Of a DNA stretch of 64,000 nucleotides, positions 22,947-53,164 are shown piece by piece; position 1 is the stretch's first letter; the number at the start of each line of letters is the position of its first letter. Below the pieces are notes generated by a model, which was not told where the DNA came from, did not search any database, and saw only the letters and a list, made by a program, of their open reading frames with translations. The stretch is from the IMG/VR virus record IMGVR_UViG_3300017903_002946, positions 16,570-80,569 of that record; one strand, given 5' to 3'. The stretch comes from a virus (taxonomy: Duplodnaviria > Caudoviricetes). The translations under genes and the position numbers were made by a program.

Positions 22947-22981
22947 GAAAAGGCTGCCTCGTGGTGGCCTTTCCCCCAAAT

Positions 22982-23065
22982 GCCTAGGTGGCGGAATAGG
23001 TAGACGCATCGGACTTAAAATCCGCTGACATTTATGTCGTGCGAGTTCAAGTCTCGCTCTAGGTA
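22982..23065 (+). tRNA. tRNA-Leu(UAA)
   Basis: Cloverleaf GCCTAGG/TCTAGGT, anticodon loop CT-TAA-AA, long variable arm, GTTCAAG T-loop; no encoded CCA. Confidence 0.95.
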
Positions 23066-23104
23066 TTATTTAGTTAAAGTAATTATGTTGAAAGAAATAT
23101 ATAT

Positions 23105-23395
23105 GTGCCGTACAAAAATCCGTGCAAACGTAAACAAGCACGTAAAAAACATCGTCAACATATTAAAGATGAAATAAACAAACGCCTTACTCCATGTGCA
23201 CACTGCGGCGCTTTTGATGTAGCTTTTATGGATTGGCACCATACAGATCCATCTACTAAAGTAGCCTCAGTTAATAGGTTAAAACGTGATTCAACACTTG
23301 AAGCAGCATTAGCTGAATTAGAAAAGTGTATATGTCTTTGTTCTAATTGCCATCGTAAACTTCACTATTACGAGCAATCAAACAAGGTTCCGTAG
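23105..23395 (+). CDS. HNH endonuclease within tRNA cluster
   Basis: CAHC...DWHH...CICLCSNCHRKLH. Confidence 0.8.
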   Translation: MPYKNPCKRKQARKKHRQHIKDEINKRLTPCAHCGAFDVAFMDWHHTDPSTKVASVNRLKRDSTLEAALAELEKCICLCSNCHRKLHYYEQSNKVP

Positions 23396-23459
23396 CTCAG
23401 TTGGATAGAGCATCGCTCTTCTAAAGCGTCGGTCGTTGGTTCGAATCCAACCGGAATCG
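23386..23459 (+). tRNA. tRNA-Arg(UCU)
   Basis: GGTTCCG/CGGAATC acceptor stem, anticodon CT-TCT-AA, TTCGAAT T-loop. Confidence 0.93.
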
Positions 23460-23461
23460 TT

Positions 23462-23534
23462 GCTTCGTTAGCAATCTGGTGAATGCAGCAAACTCATAAT
23501 TTGCCTAAGGCTGGTTCAATCCCAGCACGAAGCA
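23462..23534 (+). tRNA. tRNA with CAU anticodon (Met or Ile2)
   Basis: GCTTCGT/ACGAAGC acceptor stem, GCAAA-CTCATAA-TTTGC anticodon arm. Confidence 0.9.
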
Positions 23535-23580
23535 TATGTATGTTCTATGTACAATTGATAAAGAATCAATTTATCAATAA

Positions 23581-29004: not shown

Positions 29005-29157
29005 ATGTCTTTAGGAGATGAAGCTGCAGCTGCCTCAACACGATATACTCGTCGCCCTATTGTAGGCAATTCACCAGCAAAAGTAGAAGAAACTCCAGTT
29101 GTAGAAGAAACTGTAGTAGAAACTCCTGTTGAAACTGCTAATACTGACCAACAATAA
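29005..29157 (+). CDS. Small acidic protein (50 aa)
   Basis: Hand-translated MSLGDEAAAAS...VEETPVVEETVVETPVET. Confidence 0.5.
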   Translation: MSLGDEAAAASTRYTRRPIVGNSPAKVEETPVVEETVVETPVETANTDQQ

Positions 29158-29205
29158 ATACCACAAACATTGTTAAACTAAAGACATATTTGCATTTAAT
29201 CAACT

Positions 29206-30009
29206 ATGTCTGCTGCCGAAGAAAACACTCGTAAAAGTGGTAGCCGAATGGCTGCTAAACGAGGCACACGAATTAACAATACTAATAAAGTAGATTTTAG
29301 CGGCGCTAAAATTGGTGCTTTTAATTCGGGCAACAGTACATCTACTTCTAAATCTACTTCTAATTCCTCTGCTGGAATGAGCAGTAGCAGTTCTAGTAAA
29401 CCAGGTAAAAAACCATTTACACAGCCAGGTAGTTCTAGTAAAAATCAAAAAAAAGCAGATCGTGAAAAACGCGCCGAAAAGCGCATGATGCGAATCAAAT
29501 CTTTGCGTATGCAAAGAAGGAAAGCAAGGCAAAGCGGTGATAAAAAGCTTGCTAAGAAACTTTCTATGCGAATTATGAGAATTCGTAGAATGTCTTCACA
29601 ACAGGCTCAAAGACGCATGATGCGAATCAAATCTTTGCGTAATCAAAGAAAGGCAGCAAAGCAAAGCGGTAATACAAAGCTTGCTAAGAAACTTTCTATG
29701 CGAATTATGAGAATTCGTAGAAAGTCTTCGCAACAGACTAAAAAGCGCACTAATAATAGACTTACTAAGCGAATTATGAGAATTCGTAGAAAGTCTTCAC
29801 AACGGGCTCAAAGACGCATGATGCGAATCAAATCTTTGCGTAATCAAAGAAAGGCAGCAAAGCAAAGCGGTAATAAAAAGCTTGTTATGAAACTTTCTAT
29901 GCGAATTATGAGAATTCGTAGAAAGTCTTCACAACAGGCTCAAAGACGCATGATGCGAATCAAATCTTTGCGTAATCGAAAAAAAAAACTAAAGAGCGCA
30001 AGAAAGTAA
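29206..30009 (+). CDS. Protamine/histone-like Arg-Lys-Met-rich repeat protein, part 1
   Basis: 44-aa (132-bp) repeat units starting at 29482, 29614, 29815 and 29947; almost no acidic residues. Confidence 0.75.
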   Translation: MSAAEENTRKSGSRMAAKRGTRINNTNKVDFSGAKIGAFNSGNSTSTSKSTSNSSAGMSSSSSSKPGKKPFTQPGSSSKNQKKADREKRAEKRMMRIKSLRMQRRKARQSGDKKLAKKLSMRIMRIRRMSSQQAQRRMMRIKSLRNQRKAAKQSGNTKLAKKLSMRIMRIRRKSSQQTKKRTNNRLTKRIMRIRRKSSQRAQRRMMRIKSLRNQRKAAKQSGNKKLVMKLSMRIMRIRRKSSQQAQRRMMRIKSLRNRKKKLKSARK

Positions 30010-30017
30010 TCAGCTCT

Positions 30018-30344
30018 TTGCGTAATCAAAGAAAGAAAGCAAGGCAAACCGGTAATAAAAAGCTTGCTAAGAAGCTTTCTATGCGAATTATGAAAGTTCG
30101 TATGAAGGATAGACCACGTCCGATGAGATCTATTCGTCAGGTTATGAGAGCTAAGCGTCAAGCTATGAGAGCTATTCGTCAGGCTATGAAGCTTAGGCGT
30201 CGAGCTATGAGGCTTAGGCGTCAGGCTATGGGATCTACGCCTCGGGTTATGAGAGCTATTCGTCAAGCTATCAGAGCTAAGCGTCGAGCTATAAGAGCTA
30301 AGCGTCGGGCTATGAGACTTCGACGTCGGGCTATGAGACGCTAG
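30018..30344 (+). CDS. Basic repeat protein, part 2 (probably fused to part 1 by a -1 shift at A10, 29979-29988)
   Basis: Continues the same repeat, then 7-aa RAIRQAM-type heptads; its frame is open back into the A run. Confidence 0.65.
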   Translation: MRNQRKKARQTGNKKLAKKLSMRIMKVRMKDRPRPMRSIRQVMRAKRQAMRAIRQAMKLRRRAMRLRRQAMGSTPRVMRAIRQAIRAKRRAIRAKRRAMRLRRRAMRR

Positions 30345-30407
30345 AAGTAGAGTTAACCGTAAAAAAAGAAAGTAAACTTTCTTAAGTGTCACTAATAAAC
30401 TAACCAT

Positions 30408-30425
30408 AGCCGCCAAAAGGCGGCT
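30408..30425 (+). terminator. Hairpin downstream of the basic protein
   Basis: AGCCGCC-AAAA-GGCGGCT. Confidence 0.5.
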
Positions 30426-30471
30426 ATATTTATGTCATGGGTTAATCGCCCATGTTTTAAATTTGCAACGA

Positions 30472-30876: not shown

Positions 30877-31527
30877 ATGACTATTCTCCAAGACAACACA
30901 GCTATTGTTTCAGATTTGATTGCTGGTGGTCAGCAATCTGATGTCAGCATGATGATTGGTGTCGGTGTCAATAAAGATAGCGATGCAGTATTTTTCATGT
31001 ATCGCGGTGATGATCAAGAGCCAGTTGCACTTACTATTCCAACTTCGGGTAAACCTTTGACTCGCCTTGGCAATGTCAAAGTGACTGGTATCAATATTGC
31101 TGAAGATATTGGCTCATTTAAGTCCACCAAGCTCAATCTTTTTTTGACTACTAACACAGGTACAGTTATTCTTGTTACTTCTGGATTGACAACTCTCTGG
31201 TCCCAATGTGTCTTGACTGGCTTAATGGGAGCATTCAATACTGGCAATCTTGAATTTGCTTTGACTTTGGATACCTGGAAAGGTAATTCCAAAATGAAGC
31301 CATGCTTTGCCGCTATCCGTTCTGGCGATCTTAAAATGTCTGATACTGATTTGTATGAGCAACTTAAAGAAGCCCGATCTGATCGTGATAATAAAAAAGT
31401 AGAAACTATTTTGCGTGATTGTGTTTCAATTCTCAGTCATTCAATCTCACCTTCAGACGAAAAAGATCTTAAAGTATTGAATGTGAATATTCACCATAAC
31501 AACGACAATAACGAGGAGCTTTTCTGA
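30877..31527 (+). CDS. Hypothetical protein
   Basis: Likely start MTILQDN after the hairpin at 30814. Confidence 0.7.
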   Translation: MTILQDNTAIVSDLIAGGQQSDVSMMIGVGVNKDSDAVFFMYRGDDQEPVALTIPTSGKPLTRLGNVKVTGINIAEDIGSFKSTKLNLFLTTNTGTVILVTSGLTTLWSQCVLTGLMGAFNTGNLEFALTLDTWKGNSKMKPCFAAIRSGDLKMSDTDLYEQLKEARSDRDNKKVETILRDCVSILSHSISPSDEKDLKVLNVNIHHNNDNNEELF

Positions 31528-32060
31528 TGGGTTCACAGTCTGAACGCCGTAATCTCTATTACGAAGAAAATGATCAATATGATCCTTTGATTTCAGTAGA
31601 TATCAACGAATATCTTATTGAAAGTTGGCCTACTTTAACATTAAAACAACGTACTTCTGTTTGGACTCTTTGTCAAAATGATGAAGAATTTGATTACACC
31701 AGTATTTACGATCAGATTGATGATTATGTATATAAACTTGCTGAAAGTGATTCTGAAGTATATTTGGGTGATGATTCTTCTGATTATGAAGAATATGATG
31801 ACGATGAAAATGACGATGACACTGATGATGAAGACGAAAGTCTTGATGGTTATCTAATTGTCGATGTTGTCACTTATTTGTCAGATAAATATCCAAATAT
31901 TACTGAAGAACAACTTTTTGAAATTTCAGACCATATGAATAGCGACGAAGCATTTAGCTGGGATGCTCTTTATACCTATATGGATTTTTACGTCAAGCAA
32001 TATGCATGCGAAGTAGATAATACTATTAATTTAGAAGAATCTTCAGATGAAGCTGAATGA
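31527..32060 (+). CDS. Very acidic two-repeat protein
   Basis: 177 aa; two similar ~55-aa halves joined by a D/E tract. Confidence 0.7.
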   Translation: MGSQSERRNLYYEENDQYDPLISVDINEYLIESWPTLTLKQRTSVWTLCQNDEEFDYTSIYDQIDDYVYKLAESDSEVYLGDDSSDYEEYDDDENDDDTDDEDESLDGYLIVDVVTYLSDKYPNITEEQLFEISDHMNSDEAFSWDALYTYMDFYVKQYACEVDNTINLEESSDEAE

Positions 32061-52298: not shown

Positions 52299-52418
52299 GC
52301 TACACAAACTACGCCTATATTTTATATATCTAGTTATTTATTAGCTACTACTGCCTATATACATTTTTAGAAAACAGTATATAAGCAGTAACGTAGTTAG
52401 CGTAGTTTCTGTAGTTGC
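52299..52418. repeat. Iteron/AT-rich element copy C (inverted), overlapping the recombinase stop codon
   Basis: Reverse complement reads CTACGCTAACTACG...TATATACTGTTTT...CTAATAAA...ATATATAAA...GCGTAGTTTGTGTAGC. Confidence 0.85.
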
Positions 52419-53164
52419 TTTGCGATATCTTCAAGTAGCACATCGCCGTAGCTTGCTGTCATACCAGATGGTTTGTGTCCTACTACAGCCATTGCAATAC
52501 TGTATTCAATCCCTGCTTGCCGCATACGAGTGATAAACGAGTGTCGAATACCATGAGCTGATATACCTGTGTGTTTTTTTAGCTTGCGACTGAAGTAGTC
52601 ACCTGCGTTGGGATTCGTTGTAAAAGGGAATTTTTCAATATATTTAAAATACTCAGGGTGTATTGGCACCTTCCTCTGCGTGTATTCGTTTTTACATTTA
52701 CGAATATGATTGTGCTCAATGTTGATATACGGTTGTTCAGCATCTGTCACAAAGTCTTCAGGCAACAAGCATGCCACTTCACTGATCCTGAAGCCGTGTA
52801 ACCACACCGCCATAAACAATGGATCATCATGGAACTGGTGGAAGTGATCAAACTTTTTATGTGGATACTTTTTCTTAGAACGACCTAATCCCTTGAGCAT
52901 TCCACGCCAGGGATTCCATTTAAGAATTCCCATTTCTACCCCGCGTTCCCACATCGAACCGAGGTAACCAAGCTGTGTTCGAACATAACCTTCTGTGTAG
53001 TCACACTCAAGGAGTTCGCACCTGTGATCAACGCAGAACTCCCTATCAATTTTGGAAGTGTCTACATTCTCAAAATGCCTTGAAGAGTGCCTCCATCCGT
53101 ATTGGGTTGACTCCGACAAACGCTTGAATGACAGCGTCCGTTTACAAAGTTTTGAAACCAACAT
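52397..53164 (-). CDS. Compact tyrosine recombinase
   Basis: HGFRISE (R), KCK (K), HGIRH (HxxR), VGH, ASYG (Y); 255 aa, no arm-binding domain evident. Confidence 0.9.
   Translation of the reverse strand: MLVSKLCKRTLSFKRLSESTQYGWRHSSRHFENVDTSKIDREFCVDHRCELLECDYTEGYVRTQLGYLGSMWERGVEMGILKWNPWRGMLKGLGRSKKKYPHKKFDHFHQFHDDPLFMAVWLHGFRISEVACLLPEDFVTDAEQPYINIEHNHIRKCKNEYTQRKVPIHPEYFKYIEKFPFTTNPNAGDYFSRKLKKHTGISAHGIRHSFITRMRQAGIEYSIAMAVVGHKPSGMTASYGDVLLEDIAKQLQKLR

Follow-up and report, generated by a model that had tools for sequence, protein, structure and literature searches.

A family of very basic repeat-containing proteins in the photosynthesis-gene island of uncultured marine cyanophages

We identified a family of very basic proteins encoded next to the photosynthesis genes of uncultured marine cyanophages, and the comparative evidence indicates that this family is genuine, that its members are translated and that it had not been described before. 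Among the members recovered, the one encoded in the window, the stretch of 64,000 nucleotides of phage DNA analysed here, is both the longest and the most charged. We tentatively propose, with a probability of roughly 0.45, that the protein is a tethered polycation, i.e., a conserved docking peptide joined to a tail that would bind a polyanion, probably nucleic acid, inside the infected cell. The uncultured marine cyanophages of the S-EIV1-like (BAC21E04) group occur widely in the oceans, and almost none of their genes has been assigned. To our knowledge, tailed phages have not been described to encode proteins this basic (net charge up to +128) and this long (up to 379 aa). Should the protein prove to coat or compact nucleic acid, cyanophages would have a new way to handle host or phage DNA or RNA. 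The N-terminal peptide of the protein is also a handy marker of the lineage in metagenomes. An earlier note on this DNA had pointed out the basic repeats. It overlooked the N-terminal module, the existence of a family whose synteny is fixed, the lineage of the phage, and the fact that the repeats were amplified specifically in this genome.

One gene in two reading frames

The basic gene is encoded on the plus strand, in two reading frames that meet at a run of ten adenines (A10). Its features are the following:

29206..30009, plus strand: ORF A, 267 aa, frame 1
29206..29334, plus strand: conserved N-terminal module, codons 1-43, starting with the conserved nonapeptide; candidate docking peptide
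29335..29481, plus strand: low-complexity linker rich in Ser, Thr, Gly and Lys, approximately residues 44-92, model pLDDT below 50
29482..29978, plus strand: basic helical repeats of frame 1, with three full and two partial copies of the module
29482-29601, 29614-29733 and 29815-29934, plus strand: the full 40-aa helix-Gly-Asn-helix modules of frame 1, delimited by the module HMM
29976 to the stop codon at 30342-30344, plus strand: frame-0 continuation, open for 122 codons
29979-29988, plus strand: A10 run at the frame change, joining frame 1 to frame 0 if one A is added or if there is a -1 slip
29988..30344, plus strand: frame-0 piece past the A10 run, residues 262-379 and the stop codon
29997-30116, plus strand: fourth full helix-Gly-Asn-helix module, frame 0, i-E-value 1e-25 in the fused protein
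30123-30343, plus strand: Arg/Ala/Met heptad tail, ending in an Arg-rich C-terminus

The overlap between the two frames is confined to 29976-30009. It contains the A10 run, which is the longest homopolymer of the window. A fused protein of 379 aa results if the DNA or the mRNA has one A more, or if the ribosome slips by -1. We regard ORF A and the frame-0 continuation (ORF B) as the two halves of a single gene, because the continuation holds a full copy of the module found in frame 1, because it closes with the Arg-rich C-terminus typical of the family, because all 28 distinct complete relatives are uninterrupted ORFs (179-310 aa), and because no homologue of ORF B was found as a stand-alone protein. 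We discarded the reverse-strand ORF at 29940..30416 as a by-product of the repeat composition, since conservation and synteny track the forward frame.

The fused protein has a net charge of +128 and a pI of about 12. It contains 21% Arg, 15% Lys, 11.6% Ser and 8.7% Met, and is devoid of Cys, His, Trp and Tyr. The earlier description of about 380 residues over two frames, nearly free of acidic ones, is accurate: only nine of the 379 residues are acidic (2.4% Asp and Glu). No other ORF of the 80.6-kb genome is as basic as the two pieces of this gene. Tandem Repeats Finder also retrieved the succession of 44-aa repeats and 7-aa heptads that had been noticed before, as a 132-nt (44-aa) unit at 29477-29749 and a 21/42-nt (7/14-aa) array of 10.5 copies at 30123-30343, and revealed a further period of 201 nt at 29559-29944. 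Our HMM of the 40-aa module matched four full and two partial copies, with i-E-values of 4e-25 to 7e-27 for the full copies of frame 1. In the heptad tail the positions of Ala, Met and Arg are fixed and the helical hydrophobic moment reaches 0.92, i.e., the tail is predicted to form a strongly amphipathic cationic helix. We found no membrane-spanning segment (the highest Kyte-Doolittle mean over 19 residues was -0.12).

We modelled ORF A alone with AlphaFold2. Residues 1-77 were disordered, and residues 78-265 formed long helices with a pLDDT above 90. The packing of these helices is uncertain because the pTM of the model was only 0.43. The N-terminal module modelled alone, from an alignment of 14 sequences, was disordered (pLDDT 58, pTM 0.12), which would suit a peptide that folds only on its partner. 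Foldseek found nothing in the PDB below an E-value of 0.001. The search of PDB sequences matched only designed helical repeat proteins (e.g., 9dze and 5cwh, E-values from 3e-4 to 0.5), which also consist of idealised helix-turn-helix repeats of around 40-45 aa. Those proteins are artificial, and the likeness concerns the regularity of the repeats and a helix-favouring composition, not descent or function.

A small family in one lineage of marine cyanophages

The virus contig to which the window belongs is 80,569 bp long and has direct terminal repeats. The matches to PHROGs for the large terminase (TerL), virion proteins and tail fibres support its being a tailed phage. In the phage collection, the only close match of its TerL was that of Synechococcus phage S-EIV1, at 56% identity. 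We thus class the phage as a marine relative of S-EIV1, in the uncultured BAC21E04 lineage. The window also encodes an HNH nuclease, a class II-like RNR, a primase-helicase, a piece of DNA polymerase A, and an integrase of the tyrosine-recombinase type (52397-53164, Phage_integrase, E-value 3e-9). This gene content fits the uncultured marine BAC21E04-related lineage of Flores-Uribe et al. (bioRxiv 10.1101/325100), in which an integrase of this type was reported and the basic gene is not mentioned.

We recovered 44 loci related to the basic gene, including the 28 distinct complete relatives, in scans of IMG/VR contigs, one BATS contig, and JGI metagenome contigs. Six relatives came from a word-based search. 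An exhaustive phmmer search of 1.84 billion representatives with the first 46 residues returned six matches, all of which were members of the family and three of which were new. The relatives have net charges of +37 to +94, 2.5-7% of acidic residues and almost no aromatic ones. Their Met content ranges from 3.6 to 15% (median 10.3%), with poly-Met runs of up to eight residues and runs of Gly-Met dipeptides.

The members of the family share the same plan: an N-terminal module of around 43 aa, of which there are two or three subtypes, a linker, a basic helical stretch, and an Arg-rich repeat tail. The initial nonapeptide is shared, without change, by almost all of the members that we recovered. 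The linker is rich in Ser, Gly, Thr and Asn and very variable in length, and the poly-Met runs are sometimes found there. The basic helical stretch often contains a single helix-Gly-Asn-helix module. The tails are made of Arg-Pro-Met, Arg-Gly-Gly, Ser-Arg or Arg-Ala-Met repeats, and at least three of the last five residues are Arg or Lys in 24 of the 28 relatives. The window gene shows the three features of the family: the N-terminal module, the basic low-complexity tail, and the position in the locus.

Searching for homologues therefore uncovered a family, but no protein of known function. The basic protein had no significant match in Pfam, PHROGs or NCBIfam, and no usable match in the ESM Atlas. 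The phage records had no match for the region (blastn), nor for the N-terminus or ORF A (protein searches). The gene is also not seen in hosts or prophage relics, since we found zero copies in a scan of 185,579 prokaryote genomes. S-EIV1, the closest isolate, lacks both a copy and any very basic long ORF of this kind. The family thus appears to be small and undescribed, and we found it only in one lineage of uncultured marine cyanophages.

A conserved N-terminal module and a fast-changing tail

The N-terminal module has a pN/pS of 0.04 in nine distinct sequences (pN 0.021, pS 0.55), and its synonymous sites are near saturation. This low ratio indicates that the frame is translated, which answers a doubt raised in the earlier note, and that the peptide is strongly constrained. 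We found no paralogue of the module in the 80.6-kb genome. One of the most conserved peptides of the region is thus joined to one of its fastest-changing sequences: the tails cannot be aligned between subtypes. This pattern suggests a conserved contact and a second part that is either in an arms race or constrained by charge only. The tail seems to be selected for its composition, not for its sequence.

The repeats of the window gene illustrate this turnover. The four full units are 81-97% identical in DNA among themselves. Their ungapped identity to the unit of L007 or L008, two relatives with one unit each, is only about 48%. Hence, their amplification is recent and local. The differences between the units are almost all nonsynonymous, which would fit relaxed or diversifying selection with the charge kept, and is also compatible with a lack of constraint. 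As for the suspicion that the repeats are an artefact of collapsed assembly, repeats of this type are present in many independent assemblies; it retains some force for the exact number of copies and the length of the A run, which could be assembly errors.

A fixed place in the photosynthesis-gene island

The basic gene is a fixed part of the photosynthesis-gene island of this lineage. The order of the genes is constant: hli, a small ORF of 36-50 aa, the basic gene, a terminator, and a conserved ORF of 59 aa. Directly upstream in the window are psbA (Photo_RC, E-value 1e-86), talC (TAL_FSA, E-value 8e-49) and an hli-type gene (21.8 bits with Chloroa_b-bind, just below the cut-off of 22.3), exactly the island after which the gene had been placed before. 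The basic gene shares the plus strand with psbA, talC, the RNR, the primase-helicase and the DNA polymerase, and the minus strand encodes TerL and the virion proteins. We delimited the following elements around it:

29005..29157, plus strand: small companion ORF (50 aa), whose N-terminus is conserved and whose variable tail is mildly acidic
29168..29182, plus strand: conserved upstream non-coding element of 15 nt, with the extended -10-like sequence TGTTAAACT; candidate promoter
30406..30427, plus strand: intrinsic terminator from the terminator scan, with a 9-bp stem including six G-C pairs, followed by a T-rich tail

The upstream element lies around 24 nt before the start codon and occurs once in the window. 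Its sequence hardly differs between four loci in which the surrounding spacer and the synonymous sites vary. It is a candidate promoter, although a simple sigma-70 scan did not call it. The stem of the terminator is invariant across seven loci of different subtypes. Because both the upstream element and the terminator are conserved, the basic gene resembles a self-contained unit in which the ends are conserved and the middle can be replaced. In the BATS contig (L005) the cassette is duplicated in tandem together with the upstream element (1520-2059 and 2132-2502), and the N-terminal module is the same in both copies whereas their tails are unrelated. The structure of the 5' leader was no better than that of shuffled sequence, and we found no known RNA family in the region.

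The motif scan found the companion ORF upstream of the basic gene in 30 of the 44 loci, most of the others having too little upstream DNA, and always at a distance of 40-59 nt. The alignment of the companion ORF has 12 invariant columns, and it has no match in Pfam or PHROGs. We considered that it might be an acidic chaperone of the basic protein and set this idea aside, since its net charge is just -6 to +1. The N-terminus of the companion ORF resembles that of the basic gene: Met, Ser or Thr, two residues, an acidic pair, and later Thr-Arg. Only these two ORFs of the genome show such a pattern, and they may be distant paralogues or carry a common signal. We did not retain the motif as a general signal of the phage, because outside the basic gene only this adjacent small ORF has it.

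Other elements of the locus deserve mention. A second hairpin lies directly 3' of the terminator (30436-30454). In more distant relatives the sequence of its stem has changed and the pairing is kept, so that its structure may be conserved by compensatory changes. The non-coding sequence between the stop codon and the terminator includes a stretch of 15 nt (30376-30390) that is conserved in several relatives. A conserved protein of 177 aa without a family match, encoded 1.2 kb downstream (31527-32060), has a long Asp/Glu tract whose length varies between relatives, making it an extremely acidic counterpart of the basic protein.

A putative tethered polycation

The reading that we favour, the tethered polycation, combines these observations as follows. 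The N-terminal peptide of around 43 aa, disordered when alone, would dock onto a conserved partner. The flexible Ser/Gly-rich linker would separate it from the binding end, made of helix-Gly-Asn-helix hairpins followed by the amphipathic Arg/Ala/Met heptad helix and its Arg-rich end. This basic helical region would bind a polyanion, most likely DNA or RNA, by charge and not by a specific fold. If only charge and composition matter, the tail can turn over fast by gain and loss of repeats, and in this genome a recent amplification would have turned one module into four full copies and two partial ones. The 379-aa form would be made through an extra A or a -1 slip, and otherwise a 267-aa form without the heptad tail. 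The gene would be its own transcription unit within the photosynthesis and replication block, and it is this location that makes an action inside the infected cell probable. Our data establish that this is one gene of a family, together with its architecture, composition and synteny and the selection on its N-terminus; we infer that it binds a polyanion, docks through its N-terminus, has a promoter in the upstream element, acts inside the cell and is expressed by slippage. The case for nucleic acid comes from the composition of the protein, since it has no homology to proteins of known function. This functional reading seems plausible in kind.

The earlier note had called the protein protamine-like. 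This stands for the composition, which is that of a polycation binding polyanions, dominated by Arg with almost no acidic residues, and is kept in the 28 relatives. The condensing of DNA and the sequestration of the host nucleoid, which the note had deduced from it, are hypothetical. It does not stand for homology to protamines or other DNA condensers: we found no match to a protamine or viral basic core-protein family in Pfam, PHROGs or NCBIfam at E-values up to 1. Very high Arg and few acidic residues are shared with protamines, baculovirus P6.9 and adenovirus proteins VII and mu, and so are the conservation of composition over sequence and, in some members, the Ser-Arg repeats. The protein described here differs from such condensers by being much longer, predicted to be helical over large parts, and rich in Lys and Met, as well as by its conserved, non-basic N-terminal module and its long Ser/Gly linker.

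The chlamydial Hc2/HctB and the AlgP of Pseudomonas are also polycations built of short basic repeats. They bind the nucleoid of prokaryotes, and the number of their repeats varies between strains. They differ from our protein in being Lys/Ala-rich cellular proteins, and we know of no description of Met enrichment or of an N-terminal docking module in them. The linker-histone and H1-like repeat models of Pfam and NCBIfam did not match our protein.

The protein could alternatively be an internal protein of the phage head, with the N-terminal peptide as a capsid-targeting signal and the polycationic tail neutralising the packaged DNA and being co-injected with it, perhaps as a shield against host nucleases, in the way of the internal proteins of phage T4. 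We regard this as unlikely. The loci of the internal proteins of phage T4 (IPI, IPII and IPIII) combine a conserved leader with a highly variable basic body and are prone to duplication and replacement; by analogy, the conserved leader and hypervariable basic body described here, and the tandem cassette of L005, would reproduce this pattern. The extreme charge of the protein and the rapid turnover of the tail, as expected in an arms race, also speak for it. However, the neighbours of the gene are photosynthesis and replication genes, TerL and the virion proteins are encoded on the other strand, and this location in a non-structural block argues, if weakly, against the putative packaging in the virion. 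The leader is not shared by several proteins as in T4: the N-terminal module is in no other ORF of the genome, with just its first few residues recurring in the adjacent small ORF, and is therefore not a general targeting signal. We found neither a cleavage site nor a link to a prohead protease, and the leader of around 43 aa is without known cleavage. Furthermore, there is no sequence similarity with the T4 proteins, and the body is built of repeats, of low complexity and far more charged.

The frame change at the A10 run

The frame change may be an error of sequencing or assembly, a hypermutable variant of the population, or a fixed A10 run that is bypassed during expression. The run contains the slippery A_AAA_AAA in the zero frame, and the -1 frame stays open between 29976 and 30344. 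We nevertheless conclude that the run is not a conserved recoding site of the family, because the A runs of the 44 relatives do not exceed eight and because there is no stimulatory structure downstream (the hairpin there is no better than those of shuffled sequence, z -0.9). Runs of 10 or 11 A can be bypassed by slippage of the RNA polymerase. If the A10 run is real, both the 267-aa and the 379-aa forms are likely to be made, since runs this long make the bacterial RNA polymerase slip. An analogous case is tssM1 of Citrobacter rodentium, where transcriptional slippage at a run of 11 A restores the frame in 20-25% of the products and results in two functional length variants (PMC4256274). In both genes a run of 10-11 A shortly precedes a premature stop, and one added A gives a long C-terminal extension, so that a short and a long form would result. 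Unlike in tssM1, the use of slippage here is our deduction and the run is not a feature of the family.

These data bear on the alternative that the gene is broken in this genome, either by a real inactivating frameshift at the A10 run or by the mis-assembly of near-identical repeats, and that a 267-aa remnant or nothing useful is made. The window gene is the only split member among 29, and its A run falls where a truncated copy of the repeat meets a full one in an irregular junction. The repeat units are 92-97% identical over 120 nt, which is hard for short-read assemblers, and we found no second copy of the exact sequence with which to check the length of the run, either by a pattern scan of viral contigs or by look-ups of the exact protein. 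However, the frame downstream is intact for 122 codons, with the module and the heptads in register, and it ends with a C-terminus of the family type just 5' of the conserved terminator. Runs of 10-11 A can also be bypassed by slippage of the RNA polymerase (PMC4256274). We think that a broken gene is decidedly unlikely.

Membranes, methionine and condensates

The targets of an amphipathic cationic helix could be membranes or acidic proteins instead of nucleic acids. The protein would then be membrane-active or directed to the thylakoids, where such helices would bind anionic lipids or acidic photosynthetic complexes. The constant adjacency to hli and the high hydrophobic moment of the heptad tail, with its face of Ala, Met and Ile, are in line with this. 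On the other hand, this face is made of small or flexible residues, the overall hydrophobicity is very low, and there is no transmembrane segment. Amphipathicity is also not a trait of the family, because the Arg-Gly-Gly, Ser-Arg and Arg-Pro-Met tails of many relatives cannot form such helices. We consider this reading improbable.

Binding by charge, as in the tethered polycation, does not account for the enrichment in Met. The earlier note had suggested the scavenging of oxidants under high light, and Met could be functional as a sacrificial oxidant sink, in a redox-sensitive low-complexity domain, or as a ligand of Cu(I). The enrichment across the family would be explained in this way, selection for Met is suggested by the runs of poly-Met and Gly-Met that the linkers of the relatives contain, and the gene adjoins high-light genes. 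Yet Met falls to 3.6-4.5% in several members that keep their charge, and the His or Cys partners that metal sites typically have are absent. Some enrichment may be expected in a fast-evolving sequence rich in Lys and Arg, given that ATG is one step from AAG and AGG. We thus find a primary role of Met highly improbable. A light- or redox-responsive condensate, in which the Arg-rich tail and the Met-rich segments would gather host or phage nucleic acid and the oxidation of Met would shift its state, is just as doubtful: it would involve expression alongside psbA and hli, an A10 run setting the ratio of the short and long forms and, in one variant, a poly-Arg C-terminus mimicking the Arg-rich tail of the cyanobacterial RNase E to capture its partners, and we regard phase separation, like the scavenging of oxidants, as speculation.

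The codon usage of the basic gene can be set beside the three tRNAs of the window. AGA is its most used Arg codon (25 of 81). The genes of tRNA-Arg(TCT) and tRNA-Met(CAT) are adjacent at 23386-23535, and that of tRNA-Leu(TAA) is at 22981-23066. The match of the first two to the AGA and Met usage of the gene may be a coincidence, as both tRNAs are common in phages.
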